Of a stretch of DNA of 64,000 nt, positions 2,330 to 11,159 are shown one piece after another (the first letter of the stretch is position 1; the number at the start of each line of letters is the position of its first letter). Where the stretch lies: assembly GCA_963668695.2 (NCBI GenBank), contig CAXXLQ010000004.1, positions 2,880,001-2,944,000 on the forward strand. The letters are read 5' to 3'. This DNA is from Vicinamibacteria bacterium (GTDB lineage Bacteria > Acidobacteriota > Vicinamibacteria > Marinacidobacterales > Marinacidobacteraceae). The notes under the pieces were generated by a model that saw only the letters and a program-made list of their open reading frames with translations, was not told where the DNA came from and searched no databases. Position numbers and translations under genes: made by a program.

Positions 2330-3949
2330 ATGTCCGAACTCCGGGTGGCCGCCGCCGAGGAGCGCGCCGCAGCCCTCCGGATCGAACTGGAGGCGGTGAG
2401 GCGCCTGCTCGCCGGACTGCCGGATCCTCCGGAGCCGCTCACCTCCGGCGAGCTGGCCGCGCGTGCCCTGGCTCCGGTTGCGAGGCGCCCGATCCGGCAG
2501 ATCCCGATCCGGCAGATGCCGGCCCGGCAGATCCCGACCCGGCAGATCCCCGCACCGCCGGCGGATTCCGCACCCGGGACCATCGCCGCCGCGCGGTCCG
2601 GGCTGGCTGCGGGCCGCATCTCGCCGGTGGACCTGGTGGAGGAGGCGCTCGAACGGGCGCGGGCGTCCGAAGGACTCGGGGCGTTTCTTCTCCTCCGGGA
2701 GGAGGAGGCGCTCGCCGAGGCGCGCCGCGCGACCGAGTCGTTCGCAGCGGTCGGGCGGGGCGAGGCCGGCGCGCGCCCGCTCCTCGGGATTCCGCTCAGC
2801 GTCAAGGACATCGTTGACGTTGCCGGATTGACCACCACCTCGGGGTCGAAGTTCCCGCACGAGGCGACCCGGAGCGCACCGGCCTGGCAGGCGCTCGCCG
2901 ACGCCGGGGCCATTCTGCTCGGCAAGAACAACCTGCAGGAGTTCGCCTTCGGGGTCAGCGGCGACAACCCGACCTTCGGCCGCACGCGAAACCCCCACGA
3001 TCCGGGGCGCATCCCGGGTGGGTCGTCTTCGGGTTCGGCGGTGGCGGTGGCCGCCGGCGTCGGCTACGGATCGGTCGGGAGCGACACGGGAGGCTCCATC
3101 CGGATCCCGGCGGGGCTCACCGGGGTTTTCGGATTGAAGCCGTCGTACGGCGTCGTCTCGCGGGCCGGGGTTACGCCGCTGTCGTGGAGCCTCGACCACG
3201 TCGGGCCGATCGCCCGGAGCGCGGGCGACATCGCCGCCCTCTTCGAGGCACTTTCCGCCGTGCCGGCGGTGCCGCCGCCGAGCCGTGGGCGGGAGGACTC
3301 GCAGCCGCTCGCGGGACTGCGGGTCGGAGTTCCCCTCGATTTCTTCTACACCGACCTGAGCCGGGACGCCCGCCGGGCGGCGGAGAGTGTGGTGGCGGAC
3401 CTCGTCGGGCTCGGTGCCGAACGCATCGAGGTGCGGATCCCGGAAGTGGAACTGGGCGGCGTATGCCGCAACGTGCTCGCCTTCACGGAGGCCGCGGCGG
3501 TGCATCGCGAGCGGCTCGCCGCGCGGCCGGACGACTTCAGCGAGGACGTGCGCCGGCTCCTGGAACTCGGCGGCGTGCTGTCCGCCGGCGACCTCCTCAC
3601 GGCGCTCTGCTGCCGGCGATTCGTCACCGACGCCTTCACCCGGCTGTTCGACACCGTGGACATCCTGGCGGTTCCGACCACGCCCGCGGGGGCTCCGGAA
3701 GCGGGGGAGCCGCTGCTGGCCACCGGGGAAGAGATCCGTCCCGGACTCATCCGGCTGGTCGGCCCTTTCAACTTCACGGGCCTGCCCGCGCTTCAGGTTC
3801 CGGCAGGGTTCGATGCGCTCGGGATGCCGCTCGGGGCGCAGCTCGTTGCCGGCCCCGGGCAGGACGTCACGGCGATCCGGGTGGCGGCGTGGTTGGAAAC
3901 GAGCGGCGCCATCCGGGCGCGCCCGCCGCCCTTCGGAACGTCAATCTGA
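2330..3949 (+). CDS. amidase signature family protein
   Basis: SVKD, GGSSSGSA and GSDTGGSIRIPA motifs (Lys-cisSer-Ser triad); GGAGGAGG SD upstream. Confidence 0.92.
   Translation: MSELRVAAAEERAAALRIELEAVRRLLAGLPDPPEPLTSGELAARALAPVARRPIRQIPIRQMPARQIPTRQIPAPPADSAPGTIAAARSGLAAGRISPVDLVEEALERARASEGLGAFLLLREEEALAEARRATESFAAVGRGEAGARPLLGIPLSVKDIVDVAGLTTTSGSKFPHEATRSAPAWQALADAGAILLGKNNLQEFAFGVSGDNPTFGRTRNPHDPGRIPGGSSSGSAVAVAAGVGYGSVGSDTGGSIRIPAGLTGVFGLKPSYGVVSRAGVTPLSWSLDHVGPIARSAGDIAALFEALSAVPAVPPPSRGREDSQPLAGLRVGVPLDFFYTDLSRDARRAAESVVADLVGLGAERIEVRIPEVELGGVCRNVLAFTEAAAVHRERLAARPDDFSEDVRRLLELGGVLSAGDLLTALCCRRFVTDAFTRLFDTVDILAVPTTPAGAPEAGEPLLATGEEIRPGLIRLVGPFNFTGLPALQVPAGFDALGMPLGAQLVAGPGQDVTAIRVAAWLETSGAIRARPPPFGTSI
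2494..2551 (+). repeat. in-frame 15-bp tandem repeat x4 (CCGGCAGATCCCGAN) encoding RQIPx
   Basis: Visible in DNA and in protein (RQIPI RQMPA RQIPT RQIPA). Confidence 0.85.
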
Positions 3950-3953
3950 CTGC

Positions 3954-4138
3954 TAGCAGCCGGTGGGCAAAGTGACGTGAGCGCCGAGAGCGGTGAGGCG
4001 CCCGGCTGACAAGGCGCGTGAGGGAGGAATACCGGGTGTATTTCGACCGAAGCGCAACGATGAGCGGCGCGAAGCGACGCGTTTCAGCCGGGATGGATCG
4101 CCGCTCGAACGCCGTGTGGGTTTTGCCACAGGCTGCTA
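3954..4138 (-). mobile_element. TA-flanked MITE-like element, main family, reverse orientation; partial internal duplication follows at ~4144-4172
   Basis: Ends TAGCAGCCGGTGG ... CCACAGGCTGCTA; interior is the reverse complement of the copy at ~36860-37007. Confidence 0.85.
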
Positions 4139-4289
4139 AGCAGCGCGTTTCAGCCGGGATGGATCGCCGCTCGCTTCCGGAGCGGGGCGCTAGCACCGCG
4201 GAGACCCCGGAGCGGAAGAGACGGGGGACGGGGCTGCCCGACCCCCATCTCTGCTGGCTCGGGAACGCCGCGTGACCTTGTCTACCGGC

Positions 4290-4298
4290 TGCTAAATT
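4290..4298 (+). promoter_or_regulatory. extended -10-like TGcTAAATT at a MITE-end remnant upstream of fabI
   Basis: TTGTCTACCGGCTGCTA resembles the MITE terminus; hexamer is 9 nt before the GTG. Confidence 0.4.
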
Positions 4299-4307
4299 GG
4301 GAGCAAC

Positions 4308-5116: not shown

Positions 5117-6412
5117 ATGACCGATCCGACCCGGAACGCTGAAGAGCGGGGAGATCCGCGATTTCCGACGGGGAACGGCAACGTTCCCACCACGAAGGCG
5201 CTGATTTACGACTGGAATCGGCCGGATCCCGACAACGCCTGGTTCCCGCCCAAACCGGTCCTGCTGAACGACGAGACGCTCCGGGACGGGCTCCAGAGCC
5301 CGTCGGTCGTGTCGCCCTCGCTCGAGAACAAGGCGAAGGTGCTCCACCTGATGGAGTCGCTGGGGATTCACTCGGCCGACATCGGGCTTCCCGCCGCCGG
5401 CCCGCACGTGGAGGAGCAGGTCCTGCATCTCGCCCGGGAGATCGTGGACAACCGGATGAAAATTCGTCCCAACTGCGCGGCGCGCACGGTCATCTCCGAC
5501 ATCGAGCCGATTGCGCGGGTGGCCGACAAGGTCGGCATACCGATCGAGGTCGCGATGTTCATCGGGTCGAGTCCCATCCGCCAGTACGCCGAGGATTGGA
5601 ACCTCGATCTGCTGCTCCGCCACACCGAAAAGGCGGTGTCGTGGGCGGTCGCCCACGGCGTGCCGCCGATGTATGTGACCGAGGACACCACCAGGGCGCG
5701 TCCCGAGAGCATCCGCCGGCTCTACACGGCGGCGATCGAGGCGGGGGCGCGGCGCGTGGTGGTCTGCGACACCGTGGGGCACGCAACCCCGGACGGAGTC
5801 ACGCGCCTGCTGCGTTTCGTTCGCGGGGTGATCGATGACACCGGAGAGGACGTCCAGCTCGACTGGCACGGGCACCGGGACCGGGGACTGTCCGTCCCGA
5901 ACAGCCTCACCGCGATCGAAGCCGGCGCCGACTGCGTTCACGGGACCGCGATCGGCATCGGGGAGCGCTGCGGCAACGCGCCGATGGATCAGTTGCTCGT
6001 GAACCTGCGCCTCCTCGGGTGGATCGACAACGACCTGACCCACCTGGCCGACTATTGCCAGACGGTTGCCGAAGCCACTTCGACCCGCATCCCGCCCGGC
6101 TATCCGGTGGTTGGGAAGGACGCCTTTCGGACGGGGACCGGCGTGCACGCCGCGGCCATCATCAAGGCGATGGCCAAGGGCGACGAATGGCTGGCGGACC
6201 GCGTCTATTCGGGCGTCCCGGCCGGGGACTACGGCCTCCACCAACAAGTCGAGGTCGGCCCCATGAGCGGCCTTTCGAACGTCATCTACTGGCTGCAAAA
6301 GCATGGACACGAGCCGACCGACGAGTTGAAGCACCGGATCTTTCGCGCGGCCAAGGACGCGCGACGGCTGCTGACCGATGACGAAATCGAGGCGCTGATC
6401 GCGTCCCCCTGA
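5117..6412 (+). CDS. 2-isopropylmalate/homocitrate/citramalate synthase family (DRE-TIM) enzyme without C-terminal regulatory domain
   Basis: DETLRDGLQ, CDTVG, HGHRDRG, GIGERCGN; ends after the post-catalytic helices (431 aa). Confidence 0.85.
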   Translation: MTDPTRNAEERGDPRFPTGNGNVPTTKALIYDWNRPDPDNAWFPPKPVLLNDETLRDGLQSPSVVSPSLENKAKVLHLMESLGIHSADIGLPAAGPHVEEQVLHLAREIVDNRMKIRPNCAARTVISDIEPIARVADKVGIPIEVAMFIGSSPIRQYAEDWNLDLLLRHTEKAVSWAVAHGVPPMYVTEDTTRARPESIRRLYTAAIEAGARRVVVCDTVGHATPDGVTRLLRFVRGVIDDTGEDVQLDWHGHRDRGLSVPNSLTAIEAGADCVHGTAIGIGERCGNAPMDQLLVNLRLLGWIDNDLTHLADYCQTVAEATSTRIPPGYPVVGKDAFRTGTGVHAAAIIKAMAKGDEWLADRVYSGVPAGDYGLHQQVEVGPMSGLSNVIYWLQKHGHEPTDELKHRIFRAAKDARRLLTDDEIEALIASP

Positions 6413-6440
6413 TCGCGTCCCCCTGATCGCGTCCCCCTGA
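6395..6440 (+). repeat. 14-bp tandem repeat x3 (CTGATCGCGTCCCC) spanning the stop codon
   Basis: Exact copies at 6395, 6409 and 6423, plus a partial CTGA. Confidence 0.9.
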
Positions 6441-6477
6441 CGGGACGCGTCGGGTTTGTCCGGCCGGCTATTGCCAC

Positions 6478-7221
6478 TAGTGTCATGTCACATGTGATAT
6501 GTCGTATTTGACGGTAGCCTGCTCGTCGCCCAACGAGGGCGAGGAGGCCGCAATCCCCGCAGGGCAACGCGGACTTCGCGGCGGCGATGGAGCGAGTGCT
6601 GGATGTCTATCGGCGTCCCTACGATGCGGCCTTTCCGGTCGTGTGCATGGACGAGACGCCCCGGCAACTGATCGGGGAGACCCGGGTGCCCATCCCGTCG
6701 GCACCGGGGCGGGCGCTGCGCCAGGACTACGAGTATCGGCGCTGCGGAACCTGCAACGTGTTCATGGCGAGCGAGCCTCTGGCTGGGCGGCGCATGACCA
6801 AGGTCACGGCCCGGCGAACCAAGACCGACTGGGCGCACTTCCTCAACGACATCGCCAAGCGGCACCCCGATGCCAAGCGGATCACGCTGGTGATGGACAA
6901 CCTCAGGCACGCACCGCCCCGGCGCCTTCTACGAGACCTTTCCCCCGGCACGAGCCAAGGCGCTGTGGGACCGCTTTGAGTTCGTCTACACCCCCAAGCA
7001 CGGCAGTTGGCTCAACGTCGCCGAGGTCGAACTCAATGTCCTGATCCGTCAGTGCCTCAACCGTCGCATTGACTCCCTCGAGACCCTGCGCGACGAGGTC
7101 GCGGCCTGGCAGGCGTCCCGAGACCGCATCCAGGCCAAGGTCAACTGGCAGTTCACCACGGACGATGCCCGCGTCAAGCTGAAACGCCTCTACCCGACAC
7201 TTGATGAATGACAGGACACTA
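6478..7221 (+). mobile_element. IS630-family element, internally deleted (740 bp between flanking TAs)
   Basis: TA-GTGTCATGTCA left end (6480-6490) and TGACAGGACAC-TA right end (7209-7219) are inverted repeats with 1 mismatch, both in a CTAG context; DDE transposase remnant inside. Confidence 0.9.
6587..7211 (+). pseudogene. IS630 transposase DDE domain; N-terminal HTH part missing; frameshift near 6905
   Basis: MERVLDVY...VVCMDE...DYEYRRCGT...LVMDNL, then in another frame FEFVYTPKHGSWLNVAEVEL...VNWQFTTDDARVKLKRLYP; stop overlaps the right IR. Confidence 0.9.
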
Positions 7222-8584
7222 GTGCGACATGTTCGGCTCCAACCGAACCCGCTAGAGCGACATGTTCCCGGGCAGATCCTGCTAGTGCGACATGTTCCGA
7301 TCCAGCCGGCCCGGCTAGTGCGACATGTTCCCCCGGGCAGATCCGGCTACTGCGACATGTTCGGCTCCAGCCGATCCCGCTACTGCGACATGTTTCCCGG
7401 GCAGATCCGGCTACTGCGACATGTTTCCCGGGCAGATCCGGCTACTGCGACATGTTCGGCTCCAGCCGATCCCGCTACTGCGACATGTTCCCCCCGTAGA
7501 TCCGGCTATTGCGACATGTTCGGCTCCAGCCGATCCCGCTAGAGCGACATGTTCCCCCCGCCGAACCGGTTAGAGCGACATGTTCGGCTCCAGCCGACCC
7601 CGCTAGAGCGACATGTTCCCCGGGCAGATCCGGTTAGTGCGACATGTTCGCCTCCAGCCGATCCCGCTAGAGCGACATGTTCCCCCCGCAGATCCGGTTA
7701 GTGCGACATGTTCGGCTCCAGCCGATCCCGCTAGAGCGACATGTTCCCCGGCAGATCCGGCTAGTGCGACATGTTCGGCTCCAGCCGATCCCGCTAGAGC
7801 GACATGTTCCCCCCGCAGAACCGGTTAGAGCGACATGTTCGGCTCCAGCCGATCCCGCTAGAGCGACATGTTCCCCGGCAGATCCCGCTAGTGCGACATG
7901 TTCGGCTCCAGCCGATCCCGCTAGAGCGACATGTTCCCCGGCAGAACCCGCTACTGCGACATGTTCGGCTCCAGCCGACCCCGCTAGAGCGACATGTTCC
8001 CCGGCAGATCCGGCTAGTGCGACATGTTCGGCTCCAGCCGACCCCGCTAGAGCGACATGTTCCCCCCGCAGATCCGGCTAGTGCGACATGTTGGGCTCCA
8101 GCCGATCCCGCTAGAGCGACATGTTCCCCGGCAGATCCCGCTAGTGCGACATGTTCGGCTCCAGCCGACCCCGCTAGAGCGACATGTTCCCCCCGCAGAT
8201 CCGGCTAGTGCGACATGTTCGGCTCCAGCCGATCCCGCTAGAGCGACATGTTCCCCGGCAGATCCGGCTAGTGCGACATGTTCGGCCCCGGCCTCCAGCG
8301 GTTAGTGCGACATGTTCGGCCCCAGCCGATCCCGCTAGAGCGACATGTTCCCCGGCAGATCCCGCTAGAGCGACATGTTCGGCTCCAGCCGATCCCGCTA
8401 GAGCGACATGTTCCCCGGCAGGCTAGAGCGACAGCCGATCCCGCTAGAGCGACATGTTCGGCTCCAGCCGATCCCGCTAGAGCGACATGTTCCCCGGCCG
8501 ATCCCGCTAGAGCGACATGTTCGGCTCCAGCCGATCCCGCTAGAGCGACATGTTCCCCCCGCAGATCCGGCTACTGCGACATGT
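7219..8584 (+). repeat. tandem array of 44 units, mostly alternating A (33 bp, YTAnnGCGACATGTT-CGGCTCCAGCCGATCCCG) and B (30-31 bp, CTAGAGCGACATGTT-CCCCGGCAGATCCGG)
   Basis: Counted by hand from the GCGACA core; units 38-39 and 44 are truncated; all begin with YTA (31 CTAG, 7 CTAC, 5 TTAG, 1 CTAT). Confidence 0.95.
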
Positions 8585-8698
8585 CAGGCGTCCCGAGACC
8601 GCATCCAGGCCAAGGTCAACTGGCAGTTCACCACGGACGATGCCCGCGTCAAGCTGAAACGCCTCTACCCGACACTTGATGAATGACAGGACACTAGT
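8585..8698 (+). mobile_element. exact 114-bp duplicate of the IS630 3' end including right IR and TA
   Basis: 8585-8698 is identical to 7110-7223 (offset 1475). Confidence 0.92.
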
Positions 8699-8738
8699 AG
8701 CGGTCCGCCGATCCGGGGATCGCCGCTGTTCGTGGCGG

Positions 8739-9620
8739 CTACCGCCGCGAGAGGACGGTAGCCACGCCCTCGTGGATGAGACGCGCGGCGAGGATCAGCG
8801 TCCGGTGGTCGCGGTCGTCCGGACAAGCCTCCACGACATCCATCCCCAGGAGGCGGCGCCCCGAAGTTGCGATTTCCTTGACGAGCTCGAGCCCCGCCCG
8901 CGCCGACAGCCCGCCCGGAACCGGATGGGCCACCGCCGGGGCGAAGGCCGGGTCGAACCCGTCCATATCCACCGTCAGGTAGATCGCGGCACCCTCCGGG
9001 AGGTGGGACAGGAGCGCCGTTCGCCTCTCCGCCTCCCAGGCCGGAATCTGCGTGACCCGGCCACCCGACGACTCCCGGATCCCGCGCTGCACCGAGGTCT
9101 CGGTACGGACTCCGATCTGGGTGATGCTCGCCACGTGCGGCATTTCCAGCAGGCGGGCGGCAACGCAGGCGTGGGAGTCCGGGTTGCCCTCGAAGTCCGG
9201 ATACATGTCGGGATGGGCGTCCCACTGGACCACCTGGATCGGACCTCGTCCCGCGTAGGCGGCCACCAGCGCGGGGGTGATCGCGTGGTCGCCCCCGAGG
9301 ATGAAGGGAGTCCGGCCCCGTGCGAGTTCCGCCTCGATCGCGGCCCGATACCGCGCGGCGTTCTCCCGGAAACCCGCACCGTCCGGCCCCAGGTCGCCAA
9401 CGTCCGCAACACTCCCCGCGCAGTCCACCCCGCTCTCGGAGACCGGGTTGTAGCAGGCGCCGTCGTAGGCGGCGCGGATCGCGGGCGGCGCCTCGGCGCA
9501 GCGATCGCGGTAGGTGGACTGGGTCGCGTCCATGACGCCGAGCAGGGAGACGGAGGAATGTTCGGCGTCCGCGCCGGCCGCGATCAGACCCCCAAACGGG
9601 ATTCTGGTTGGTTCGTGCAC
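8739..9620 (-). CDS. ureohydrolase (agmatinase/arginase family)
   Basis: LGGDHAI, WDAHPD and TVDMDGFDP metal ligands; start placed at GTG 9620 to avoid overlap with the divergent gene. Confidence 0.9.
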   Translation of the reverse strand: MHEPTRIPFGGLIAAGADAEHSSVSLLGVMDATQSTYRDRCAEAPPAIRAAYDGACYNPVSESGVDCAGSVADVGDLGPDGAGFRENAARYRAAIEAELARGRTPFILGGDHAITPALVAAYAGRGPIQVVQWDAHPDMYPDFEGNPDSHACVAARLLEMPHVASITQIGVRTETSVQRGIRESSGGRVTQIPAWEAERRTALLSHLPEGAAIYLTVDMDGFDPAFAPAVAHPVPGGLSARAGLELVKEIATSGRRLLGMDVVEACPDDRDHRTLILAARLIHEGVATVLSRR

Positions 9621-9662
9621 GCCGGTATGTTGGCAGCACGCGGCATTTAAGCTCCCGGGAAG

Positions 9663-11159
9663 ATGGCTGCTCCGCCGCGCCCCGCCGCGTCCGTGATGCT
9701 CACCCGCGGCGACGAAGTGCTCCTGGTTCGGCGCTCGCCGCGCCTCAAGGCGTTCGCGAACCTGTGGGCGTTCCCCGGCGGGACGCTTTCCGAAGGGGAT
9801 TGGGGGATCCCCGTCAGCGGCGCACCGGATGCCGAGATGGCAACCCGGATAGCGGCCGCGGTGCGCGAGGTGTTCGAGGAGACCGGGGTATTCCTGGGGC
9901 AGGGCAGGAGGCCTCTTTCGGTGTCCGACCGGGACGAACTCCGCCAGGCCCTGCTCGCCGGCGAGATTGGACTCGAGGAGGTCCTCGAAGGCTTCGGTGC
10001 GGAAATCGATGCCTCGCACTTCGCCCCGGTCGAAGAACTCGTGACGCCGGAATCGGCCCCCTTCCGGTTCGACACCCGCTTCTACCGGCTCCCGCTACCG
10101 GACGGCGCCGAACCGTCGGTGTGGCCCGGGGAGATCGTCGATCAGGCCATGCTCCGTCCCGAGGCGGCGCTCGCTCGTTGGCGCGGCGGAGAGATGGCGC
10201 TGGCGCCGCCCATCATTGGCCTCCTGGAGCGGTGGTCTCCCGACGATGGAGTCTTTCGGGATCGCAACCGGGAGGCGGCCCGCCTGCGGCCGGCGGTCCG
10301 CTATTCGCCCGGCATCGCGGTGGTCCCCTGCCGGACGCGCACTCTGCCGCCCGCGACCCACACGAACAGCGTCCTCATCGGCACCTCACGCCGCTACCTG
10401 GTGGACCCTGCCGCGGAAGACCGGGCGGAGCGGCGCGAGCTGTTCGAAATGGTCGACCGGCAGCTCGGACCGGGAGACCGGCTCGAGGCGGTTCTCGTCA
10501 CCCATCACCACCGCGACCACATCGGGTCGGTTTCCGCGGCGTCGTCACGCTATGGGGTTCCGGTCGGGGCCCATCCGGAGACCCTCGCCCGGATCCCGGC
10601 GCCTCCCGGGGGCGTCATCGAACTCGGCGAGGGAGACGCGCTCGACCTCGGAGACGCCCCCGACGGGTCGTCCGGCTGGACGCTCGGGGTGCGGTTCGTG
10701 CCCGGACACGCTCCGGGACATCTTGCCTTCGTGGAGAGCCGCTACGGAGCGATGGTGGTGGGCGACATGGTCTCCTCGCTGTCCTCCATCCTCATTTCGC
10801 CGGAAGACGGGGATCTCGGCCAATACCTGGATTCACTGCGCCGCCTGGCGGCCGAATGCCGGGGGATCGTGTACCCGGCGCACGGGGTACCGGTGGTGGC
10901 CGGCGATGAGCTGCTGGGCGGCCAGCTCCGCCACCGGGAAGCCCGCGAAGCCAGTCTGCTCGCCGCGCTGGAACCCGCGCCCGCCCGCCTTCGGGACATC
11001 GGGCTCAGGGTCTATCCGCCGGCAGAGATTCCCCGCTGGGGTCCCGCCCGCGAGCTGGCGGAGGTCGCGCTCACCTCGGGCCTTCTGAAACTGCAACGCG
11101 AAGGCCGCGCCGCCCACGACGGCGGGCAGTGGCGCCTCAGAGAAGCGGTCAGTCCGTAA
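9663..11159 (+). CDS. NUDIX-domain plus metallo-beta-lactamase-fold (LACTB2-like) fusion
   Basis: WAFPGG...AAVREVFEETG Nudix box; THHHRDHIG, GH..GH, GD and PAHG MBL motifs. Confidence 0.88.
   Translation: MAAPPRPAASVMLTRGDEVLLVRRSPRLKAFANLWAFPGGTLSEGDWGIPVSGAPDAEMATRIAAAVREVFEETGVFLGQGRRPLSVSDRDELRQALLAGEIGLEEVLEGFGAEIDASHFAPVEELVTPESAPFRFDTRFYRLPLPDGAEPSVWPGEIVDQAMLRPEAALARWRGGEMALAPPIIGLLERWSPDDGVFRDRNREAARLRPAVRYSPGIAVVPCRTRTLPPATHTNSVLIGTSRRYLVDPAAEDRAERRELFEMVDRQLGPGDRLEAVLVTHHHRDHIGSVSAASSRYGVPVGAHPETLARIPAPPGGVIELGEGDALDLGDAPDGSSGWTLGVRFVPGHAPGHLAFVESRYGAMVVGDMVSSLSSILISPEDGDLGQYLDSLRRLAAECRGIVYPAHGVPVVAGDELLGGQLRHREAREASLLAALEPAPARLRDIGLRVYPPAEIPRWGPARELAEVALTSGLLKLQREGRAAHDGGQWRLREAVSP

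Follow-up and report, generated by a model that had tools for sequence, protein, structure and literature searches.

A probable composite IS630 transposon with a satellite array as cargo in an uncultured acidobacterium

We analysed a 64,000-nucleotide stretch of DNA (hereafter the window) from the genome of an uncultured, sponge-associated acidobacterium (G000), in which positions 6480–8696 hold a deleted IS630, then a tandem array, then a duplicate of the IS630 right end. This block is likely to be a composite IS630 transposon with a satellite cargo, captured after an IS630 had entered the CTAG of an array unit; the IS630 and its spare right end seem to have moved the enclosed non-coding 1.4-kb array as one transposon. 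Two insertion sites, together with matching empty sites, outline a route by which satellite-like DNA could reach new places in a bacterial chromosome, and in the searches made, the spread of a satellite by a transposon was otherwise found described only for eukaryotes. The long intergenic arrays of this lineage, previously undescribed, are built on a core that looks conserved and are a strong draw for an IS21-like element, and they provide a concrete system in which to ask whether bacterial satellites are neutral, selfish or useful.

Structure of the IS630-array block

The block and its surroundings can be divided as follows (positions in the window, strand, feature, and in brackets the means by which it was recognized), and TA is present at all three junctions (6478–6479, 7220–7221 and 8695–8696).

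5117–6412, plus strand: HMGL-like gene, the left neighbour (Pfam HMGL-like, 1.5e-39; syntenic in the six congeners examined)
6468–6479, plus strand: left flank, formed by the left half of a decayed array unit up to and including the target TA at 6478–6479 (alignment; likeness to a unit judged by eye)
6480–7219, plus strand: IS630-family element with an internal deletion, its terminal inverted repeats both kept (BLAST, Pfam, alignment)
7220–7221, no strand: inner TA; preceded by the final IS base and followed by a G, it makes the first CTAG of the array (sequence)
7219–8584, plus strand: satellite array, its first CTAG shared with the IS end (Tandem Repeats Finder, unit table)
8585–8694, plus strand: remnant of a second IS630 copy, the final 110 bp including the right terminal inverted repeat (identity to 7110–7222)
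8695–8696, no strand: outer TA, completing the target-site duplication (sequence)
8697–8736, plus strand: right flank, the right half of the decayed array unit that received the block (alignment to G008)
8739–10019, minus strand: arginase-family gene, the right neighbour (Pfam Arginase, 7.6e-48; in 15 of 16 genomes of the genus, G000 counted)

Membership of the IS630 family is indicated by a DDE_3-type transposase with an HTH domain in the full copy, and by terminal inverted repeats (the likeness of the two ends was judged by eye) with a duplicated TA. BLAST located IS630 sequence at only three loci of the G000 genome, and the one in the window alone adjoins an array. The sole full copy, of 1.22 kb (C4:3753705–3754924; HTH_32, 2.1e-16; DDE_3, 1.5e-31), has two reading frames that are split at a run of A. 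Aligned to this copy, the element at 6480–7219 matches over query positions 1–70 (85% identity) and 78–745 (88%), and approximately 484 bp are absent between its positions 70 and 78. Almost the whole HTH-coding part is lost with this deletion, a frameshift affects the DDE part, and the remaining open reading frame (6587–6979) matches Pfam DDE_3 at 1.2e-16; with these 484 bp lost, any further movement would need a transposase from elsewhere. The right end is duplicated without a single difference: 7110–7222 and 8585–8697 are identical at 113 of 113 positions (110 IS bases, the TA and a G). As expected of a composite transposon, the left inverted repeat at 6480 and the right inverted repeat at 8694 are oriented as in a complete element, with a TA at both outer sides. 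The initial annotation had already read this order (TA, IS630, TA, array, IS end, TA) correctly from the sequence, and both the junctions and the exact duplicate were verified here.

All units of the array have the core CTAGNGCGACATGTTC in common, and units of 33 nt alternate with units of 30–31 nt, giving a 64-bp dimer. Tandem Repeats Finder called a period of 64 at 7251–8584 (21.2 copies, 87% matches, score 1585) and, in a second call on the array, a period of 127 (score 1621). The 9-mer core occurs 43 times on the plus strand, between 7224 and 8576, and nowhere on the minus strand of the whole window. Cut at this core, the array falls into 43 units (20 of 33 nt, 19 of 30–31 nt and a few of odd lengths), and unit 38 (8398–8443) contains an extra, internally deleted unit, so that the 44 units first claimed are a fair count; the claim of two mostly alternating tail types also holds in the unit table. 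At its left edge the array begins at the CTAG formed with the IS end, and at its right edge the last unit ends after 14 nt and runs directly into IS sequence at 8584/8585.

The array family, its targets and its possible roles

Seven clusters of the core were detected in the G000 assembly; contig C1 duplicates part of C4, which leaves six distinct clusters. The array family is thereby found at five other G000 loci, none of them beside an IS630, and also in five congeneric species (Ca. Marinacidobacterium). The exact core pair occurs in 6 of 41 related genomes, all of one genus, and in 5 of the 7 assemblies with at most 20 contigs. G004 and G009 carry arrays, and a DNA search of both genomes returned no copy of the window's IS630. 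Core and 33/31 alternation are the same at the other loci, and the tails are related; the tail sequences vary by locus, and the core looks conserved across loci and species. The longest arrays of the family comprise 86 or more units. The nearest kin of the window array in its own genome is array A5, with 20% of 24-mers in common (other arrays, at most 7%). Beyond the arrays, 21 lone 9-mer matches were found without the CTAG prefix, except for one at an array edge, and solitary units therefore do not occur. In a metagenome scan the core pair was found at 46 loci, mostly as single matches, and viral contigs yielded 0 matches. A few metagenomic arrays on low-GC contigs have only the 11-mer query in common with the family and are probably there by search design; single core matches in Nocardioides, Frondihabitans and others were taken as chance.

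A preference for CTAG targets is a feature of IS630 itself. The IS630 lineage of the window inserts at CTAG, and each array unit offers one. The full G000 copy is inserted in CCTAGG, three of the four full G008 copies have a CTAG at either end (for the fourth, the BLAST match is trimmed at one end), and the insertion site in the window is a CTAG; at the second locus of G001, described below, it is GTAG instead. CTAG is present genome-wide at 0.11 of expectation (1263 sites), and 180 of these 1263 sites fall in arrays, which make up 0.28% of the sequence. Restriction-site avoidance was also considered for ACATGT and rejected, as this motif is not depleted (546 observed vs 326 expected). In G001, 11 of the 14 copies of the IS21-like element sit in such arrays.

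We read the arrays as satellite DNA maintained by unequal recombination, with a core that is most likely a recognition site for some protein, the site itself being putative. A function for the host, in which the arrays would offer binding sites to a protein of the chromosome-organising or partition type or serve as precursors of small RNAs, would be compatible with a composite transposon and is conceivable, if on balance unlikely; in that case the link to IS630 would follow incidentally from the CTAG that each unit contains. Over 19 and 26 distinct array consensuses, taken from six species, unit positions 1–3 hardly vary, position 5 does not vary in the 33-nt units, and the tails average 1.28 bits. 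The invariance of core positions 6–15 is partly built in, as these positions served to find the units. The 33/31 alternation is maintained in all arrays examined and several arrays lie at orthologous loci in G001, G004 and G008, whereas arrays are absent from the near-complete congeners G010 and G014 and from the orthologous loci in G009. Folding is somewhat more stable than in shuffles for tails of the 31-nt units (17 of 26; mean −3.55 vs −2.48 kcal/mol) but not for those of the 33-nt units (6 of 19). Further points against a host function are that no recurrent gene family lies beside the arrays, that array orientation relative to replication direction is unbiased (3 against 3), and that 6300–8900 holds no promoter-like sites.

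The suggestion that the array acts as a transposase sink or as a processed small-RNA array gained no support: Rfam 15 covariance models gave 0 matches at E values up to 1 in 6000–9200 on both strands, and by eye the array core resembles the IS terminal repeat in no more than TAGTG and the ACATGT palindrome. RNA folds of one or two dimers reached z-scores of −1.8 to −3.8, which are driven by pairing of neighbouring palindromic cores and were not taken as evidence of structured RNA. In the metatranscriptomes X18 and X19, contigs cover the flanking genes and parts of the IS and none covers 7208–8547; repeats assemble badly and small RNAs are lost in such data, so that the gap carries no information on transcription.

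More speculatively, and with limited confidence on our part, the lineage could run a transposon-satellite cycle like the eukaryotic ones. Arrays with palindromic cores would then be preferred landing sites for at least two IS families (IS630, by way of the CTAG of each unit, and the IS21-like element), and the IS630 composite would carry array DNA to new sites and seed new arrays there. In its boldest form, this cycle would have arrays kept as a sponge for insertions that would otherwise hit genes, CTAG being nine-fold depleted elsewhere.

Insertion at a single TA and a second copy in a close relative

Judged by alignment to the orthologous region of G008, the block is one insertion at a single duplicated TA. 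Window positions 6432–6478 align to 7867–7914 of G008 L091 (score reached by 1 of 500 shuffles) and the right flank aligns to 7916–7952 (score reached by 0 of 500 shuffles). The two alignments are one base apart, which makes the flanks contiguous in G008, and a single TG stands there at the place of the outer TA at 8695–8696. The intergenic region at this locus measures 49–359 bp in G014, G010, G009 and G004, and the array core was not found in it in any of the four. The four flanking genes are FabI-like, HMGL-like, arginase-family and Nudix/MBL by Pfam; neither a cas nor an RT gene is among them, as had been noted from the sequence.

In G001, the closest relative, the same locus (locus 1) contains a 65-unit array with the identical break into an IS remnant, which differs from the window remnant by two bases near its end (by eye). 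Locus 1 of G001 is without the left IS and without 13 flank bases that are common to G000 and G008, and because these two genomes have the bases in common, the G001 state is derived. A second G001 locus (locus 2, C17:3553383–3558870) consists of TA, a full-length IS630, TA, approximately 52 units, the remnant and TA. Its units carry the same two tails and the same array/remnant junction as the window array, its remnant is identical to 8585–8697 at 112 of 113 positions, and the junction is thus common to locus 1 of G000 and both loci of G001, as expected if the enclosed DNA moved as a unit. The left IS end of locus 2 matches the remnant at only 93 of 113 bases, compared with 113 of 113 in G000; because its left IS is of another lineage, the locus-2 copy cannot simply be a duplicate of the block at locus 1. 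A new IS630 may have entered the array and made up a new composite together with the old right end, or else the IS may have been replaced by recombination.

G004 has an empty site for locus 2, where the right flank with the TA matches at 97% over 39 nt and the bases that precede the TA of G001 locus 2 directly precede the matched right flank. Although largely contiguous, this empty site is interrupted a few bases leftward by a copy of a common dispersed repeat, beyond which, at a distance of 222 bp, the remainder of the left flank follows. A clean empty site for locus 2 was not found in G000, where the region is rearranged. Searches for related structures were also negative in five other respects: no donor locus came to light in which an IS630 lies within a native array; no population variant that has the site empty was seen; the IS fragments at G008 C1:716273, G001 C17:2891320 and G000 C4:3225915 do not lie beside arrays, and all five IS630 matches of G008 are away from the arrays listed for that genome; array A1, compared with G009 for an insertion signature, has no duplication and no inverted ends; and the composite junction pattern gave 0 matches in the metagenome collection.

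Could the block have formed in place? A native array might have received two independent IS630 insertions at its edges, followed by a deletion that would have removed the left part of the right IS630 copy, with no movement of a composite at all. The flanks do resemble halves of a decayed unit, G008 and G004 keep two to four decayed units at this locus, which indicates that an old array existed there, and the IS630 of this lineage targets CTAG. We nevertheless regard this course of events as improbable. The outer flanks are contiguous inside one decayed G008 unit, exactly at the TA, so that both edges of a native array would have had to fall on one and the same dinucleotide; moreover, the array/remnant junction recurs at an unrelated TA in G001. 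Both the insertion at a single TA relative to G008 and the second copy at another TA in G001 argue for the composite, and agree with the part of the initial annotation that proposed a non-autonomous IS630 derivative with a satellite cargo. Its other proposal, that the array was generated at the IS end, was not supported.

Proposed history of the composite

Mechanistically, we propose that an IS630 entered the CTAG of a unit in a donor array, which would have created the inner junction of IS end, TA and array. A second copy further along the donor array would have lost its left part, by a deletion reaching from a unit core into the IS. Transposase may then have acted on the outer left end and the distal right end as a pair, mobilizing all the DNA in between. 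The target, in the ancestor shared by G000 and G001, would have been the CTAG of a decayed unit within the intergenic region between the HMGL-like and arginase-family genes. Subsequently, the left IS would have lost approximately 484 bp in G000 and would have been deleted altogether in G001.

The composite history takes the array as pre-existing. A test set beforehand, whether arrays occur elsewhere without an IS630 association, was positive; it refutes an IS-driven origin of the array and leaves the cargo reading untouched. The IS630 evidently is not what made the array, the array family existing in the genus without any IS630. Production of the array by the IS630 end, through repeated aberrant synthesis, template switching or abortive gap repair, would account for an array that begins exactly at an IS end and stops inside IS sequence, yet it is very improbable given the arrays without IS630 at five other G000 loci and in G004 and G009 (no copy by DNA search), and given units that are not IS-derived (by eye, only the two short motifs named above are alike).

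The architecture is present in two separate assemblies. Some features of the data would suit an assembly artefact, in which the 113-bp duplication and the placement of the array came from mis-joined metagenome repeats: the assembly is redundant (the end of C4 repeats C4:143039–148038, besides the duplication of part of C4 in C1), and short-read contigs break within the array. Such an artefact is nonetheless highly unlikely, since the same inner junctions occur in G001 at the orthologous locus and at a second one, the junction between left flank and IS is bridged by short-read contigs of two studies (X1, 6411–7007; X3, 6411–6554), and the 113-bp piece forms a contig of its own at about twice the depth of the flanks (313–319 vs 149–175). 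One contig from an RNA library joins 7109 to 8585 through the 113-bp repeat, which may be an assembly path or an array-less variant.

Comparison with known systems

Several known systems resemble parts of the block or of the array family. Like CRISPR arrays, the units are regularly spaced direct repeats in intergenic DNA; unlike them, they have a 16-nt constant part and two alternating fillers of 14–17 nt, with no unique spacers, and no cas gene is among the four neighbours. The G000 genome has, elsewhere, a separate array with CRISPR-like spacing. REP/BIME clusters of enterobacteria are insertion hot spots for certain IS elements, and BIME units alternate in inverted orientation and accompany RAYT, a Y1 transposase. 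They share with the arrays studied here short intergenic repeats with palindromic cores, alternating types and the attraction of IS insertions, whereas the window units are all direct (43 cores on one strand, without alternating inversion) and the arrays are far longer. A repeat array of Trichodesmium was considered as a parallel and set aside, since its units of 736–973 bp are not comparable (PMC4143802).

The literature on IS630, tandem repeats and bacterial satellite DNA outside subscription journals yielded no transposon carrying satellite DNA in bacteria, and no papers on Marinacidobacterium were found. The pneumococcal RUP is a 107-bp repeat with terminal repeats like those of IS630-Spn1, and is thought to be moved in trans by the transposase of an IS630 (PMC3049150). 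It resembles the window block in being non-autonomous with IS630-type ends; in contrast, RUP is short, high in copy number and without an internal array, while the block, at 2.2 kb (in G001 approximately 5.5 kb), has only one or two copies and contains a long tandem array. Pneumococcal BOX elements consist of boxA, tandem boxB modules and boxC, with mobilisation by an IS transposase proposed (PMC3049150). They are likewise intergenic and have modules at their ends and, between these, a tandem array that varies in copy number, but BOX is a single element with its own fixed end modules, whereas here the array family is independent and is enclosed by IS630 only in the composite.

In eukaryotes, the DTC84 MITEs of a clam (PMC3879986) and Tetris of Drosophila virilis (PMC4079207) are reported to bear satellite DNA or to seed it, and the mariner element Mboumar is reported from within ant satellite DNA (PMC2581405). 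Repeats inside DNA transposons, satellite units that are moved and a Tc1/mariner-type element within a satellite are all features similar to those of the window block, in eukaryotic hosts.

The closest bacterial counterpart is Tn630-NC1 of Nitrosomonas communis, in which two complete 888-bp IS630 copies enclose four protein genes as cargo; its authors state that there was no earlier report of an IS630 composite, which places the first such report, with genes as cargo, only in 2024 (PMC11544213). In both cases the ends of two IS630 copies bound foreign DNA with a TA at the outer sides. Relative to Tn630-NC1 as described there, the window block has one IS cut to 110 bp and the other internally deleted, carries non-coding tandem repeats of a satellite in place of genes, and adds comparative evidence for insertion at two sites.

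An IS630 element and a tandem array combined in one block

The block at 6480-8696 consists of a deleted IS630, a tandem array and a 110-bp remnant of a second IS630 right end. The IS630 copies that bear on it, in the source genome (G000) and in its closest relative (G001), are as follows:

6480-7219: IS630-type element left of the array, with TA on either side
G000 C4:3753705-3754924 (fetched locus L073, 1705-2925): full-length IS630 with HTH_32 and DDE_3, in two frames meeting at a run of A
G001 C17:3553383-3554605: full-length IS630, followed directly by TA, ~52 array units, a remnant and TA

Compared with a 1.22-kb copy elsewhere in G000, the element at 6480-7219 matched at 85-88% and lacked ~484 bp, almost the entire stretch encoding the DNA-binding region, and its remaining ORF matches Pfam DDE_3. 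In ISY100, the N-terminal HTH domain is described as binding the terminal repeats (PMC2170065). The sequences at 7110-7222 and 8585-8697 were identical at 113/113 positions, and the array thus has on each side a copy of the terminal 110 bp of the IS followed by TA, so that the architecture described in the initial annotation (array, IS parts and duplicated end) was borne out. The two full-length copies are 84% identical to each other, and in both the HTH and DDE parts lie in different frames joined at 7 or 8 A, an arrangement more suggestive of frameshifting or slippage than of a break by chance. Separately, one RNA-library contig ran from the IS body (6988-7109) through the 113-bp repeat into the right flank (8585-8855), skipping the array; it could represent an assembly path or an array-less variant.

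Tandem Repeats Finder (TRF) reported the array at 7219-8584 with a period of 64 (21.2 copies, 87% matches, score 1585) and a second period of 127. All 43 occurrences of its 9-nt core in the whole window are on the + strand. Cut at this core, the units are mostly 33 nt (n=20) or 30-31 nt (n=19) long and the two kinds mostly alternate, with CTAGNGCGACATGTTC as their constant part; one unit contains an additional, internally deleted unit, and the final one keeps only 14 nt before it is cut. Neither an Rfam match to the array region nor promoter-like sites within 6300-8900 were found.

The array as a member of a satellite family

Seven clusters of the core were found in the G000 assembly; since part of contig C4 is repeated in contig C1, they represent six distinct ones (17, 54, 86, 40, 64 and 43 cores). 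This assembly has four contigs, with the window at C4:2880001-2944000; the terminal 5 kb of C4 and C4:143039-148038 match at 99.98%, and the ends of C4 thus seem to overlap by ~148 kb, and both C1 ends match C4 (~421 kb; 304-309 kb) at >99%, a redundancy that probably explains the 9.3% contamination figure. The 21 lone 9-mer matches have no CTAG prefix, save one at an array edge, and the unit is thus confined to arrays. The alternative raised in the initial annotation, that the array was generated by the IS end that it adjoins, is contradicted by the five other G000 arrays (A1-A5), at whose edges no IS630 sequence was found.

All arrays keep the 33/31-nt alternation, with tails that vary by locus. 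Among 41 related genomes, the exact core pair was present in six, all of one genus; it occurred in 5/7 assemblies with <=20 contigs (G010 and G014 were without it) and, among nine fragmented assemblies, only in G012, a scarcity that is expected if repeats fail to assemble. A2, A4 and A5 adjoin the same genes in the congeners G001, G004 and G008, and A1 and A3 do likewise in G008; the four fetched regions of G009 and G014 that correspond to A1, A2, A4 and A5 held no arrays, and G009 carries arrays at other places. Beside the arrays lie unrelated genes of housekeeping and defence type, and array orientation showed no correspondence to replication direction. G000 DNA is present in sponge metagenome runs. 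Six metagenome loci (L116, L120, L128, L141, L152 and L155), on contigs of 40-52% GC, hold arrays with periods of 31-32 (one of 16) that have the same 11-nt core and otherwise no likeness to the G000 arrays; given the search design, this shared core is probably due to chance.

Short runs of decayed 31-32-bp units were seen in G008 (L091 7880-8010 and L103 646-709) and G004 (L090 ~8470-8540), at loci with full arrays in other species, a pattern suggesting that arrays dwindle to relics with time. Among the distinct array consensuses compared (19 and 26), positions 1-3 of the unit were nearly invariant and position 5 was invariant in the 33-nt units, the tails averaging 1.28 bits; positions 6-15 served to find the units, and their invariance is therefore partly built in. 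Tails of 31-nt units folded somewhat better than shuffles (17/26), those of 33-nt units no better (6/19), and folds of whole dimers were dominated by pairing of neighbouring palindromic cores. That the core seems conserved and the tails vary points to putative sequence-specific recognition by something, yet arrays are absent from two near-complete congeners, and we accordingly regard the arrays as satellite DNA with a putative recognised core.

A single insertion at the window site

The gene order FabI-like, HMGL-like, arginase-family and Nudix/MBL around the block (locus 1) is kept in the six congeners examined, and in G014, G010, G009, G004 and G008 the HMGL-like and arginase-family genes are separated by 49-359 bp without the array core. 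A perfect 14-bp tandem repeat (6395-6440, 3.3 copies) extends over the HMGL-like stop codon; three copies are present there in G001 and one each in G004 and G008. In G008 (L091), sequence homologous to the left flank of G000 stops at 7914 and sequence homologous to its right flank begins at 7916, with alignment scores reached by 1/500 (left) and 0/500 (right) shuffled controls. Since the flanks are contiguous in G008, 6480-8696 is extra relative to that genome, at one TA that is twofold in G000. By eye, the insertion was into a decayed array unit, at its CTAG, and two to four decayed units are kept at this site in G008 and G004. Locus 1 of G001 holds a 65-unit array that breaks off in a unit core and continues into the same IS remnant as in G000; this locus is without the left IS and without 13 flank bases common to G000 and G008, and the left end was thus lost later there.

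A second copy in the closest relative

With the full IS630 as query, a DNA search found four places in G001. The array that follows the full-length copy on C17 (locus 2) agrees with the window array in its two tails, final two units and junction, and its remnant is identical to that in the window at 112/113 positions. The G004 counterpart of locus 2 matches the right flank including TA at 97% over 39 nt, and directly before this match stand the same bases that precede TA in G001; the remaining left-flank sequence is 222 bp off, beyond a copy of a common dispersed repeat. Two separate TA sites, each with a matching empty site, and a common inner junction are as expected of a transposed unit. 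Together with the single insertion at locus 1, this second site supports the proposal in the initial annotation of an IS630 derivative with satellite cargo. It is a complication that the left IS of locus 2 belongs to another lineage (93/113 at the end and 83% overall against the window copy), reflecting either a fresh IS630 insertion into the array, by which the old right end became part of a new composite, or exchange of the IS by recombination. The dispersed repeat, which has a member at 3975-4130 (within 3850-4300) of the window and BLAST matches at ~486 distinct places of the assembly, also adjoins several arrays and sits in the G004 empty site.

Proposed capture of the cargo

Mechanistically, the inner junction (IS end, TA, G plus core) would be the trace of an IS630 insertion into the CTAG of a unit, and the right remnant may have formed by a deletion that extended from the core of a unit into another IS630 copy. 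No microhomology was seen at the joint of core and remnant. CTAG preference is a feature of IS630 itself, and the lineage here does use this site: CTAG is present at the G000 full copy (within CCTAGG) and clear in 3/4 G008 copies. Genome-wide, CTAG occurs at 0.11 of expectation (1263 sites), and 180 of these sites fall in arrays that make up 0.28% of the sequence. No donor locus for the cargo was found; the window array shares 20% of its 24-mers with A5 and <=7% with the other arrays, and A5 may be a weak pointer to its source.

Further arrays and an IS21-like element

G001 C17 carries 14 near-identical copies of a 2.5-kb IS21-like element (L162-L175), with IstA-like and IstB genes (IstB_IS21 at 2.7e-76 and a Mu-transposase C-terminal domain) and, by eye, TGT/ACA ends and 5-bp duplications. 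Five of these 14 copies lie inside arrays of the window family and six more have related-family units at their junctions (by eye); arrays are well under 1% of the genome. The element hit both G001 composites independently, in opposite orientations, and a remnant of ~130 bp is found in A5 of G000 (C4 ~2554125-2554252). A whole-genome repeat scan of G000 gave several more families of arrays, with periods of 32 and 53 bp, and also repeats with CRISPR-like spacing, for example:

C4:172199-172839, 1173553-1174469, 1487264-1487684, 3551688-3552683 and 3734722-3735519: period-32 arrays
C4:122036-123461, 424121-424748 and 3276749-3278102: period-53 arrays
C4:3280876-3283455: repeats with CRISPR-like spacing, TRF periods 121 and 183

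The periods of the last, which would be 2 or 3 times ~61, belong to repeats unrelated to the window array. One of the additional array families, with a GACGCATGC core and tails related to those of the window-array family, abuts A3.

Comparison with known systems

In the literature searched, which did not extend to subscription journals, we found neither a bacterial transposon with satellite cargo nor publications on this genus. From clam (PMC3879986) and Drosophila (PMC4079207), transposons have been described as carrying or seeding satellite DNA, and a mariner element lies inside ant satellite DNA (PMC2581405). According to the 2024 paper on Tn630-NC1, no IS630 composite had been reported earlier; that element comprises two whole IS copies and four genes (PMC11544213), whereas the block studied here has a deleted IS, an array and a remnant. 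The pneumococcal RUP has IS630-Spn1-like ends, and BOX elements contain an internal run of boxB modules (PMC3049150).
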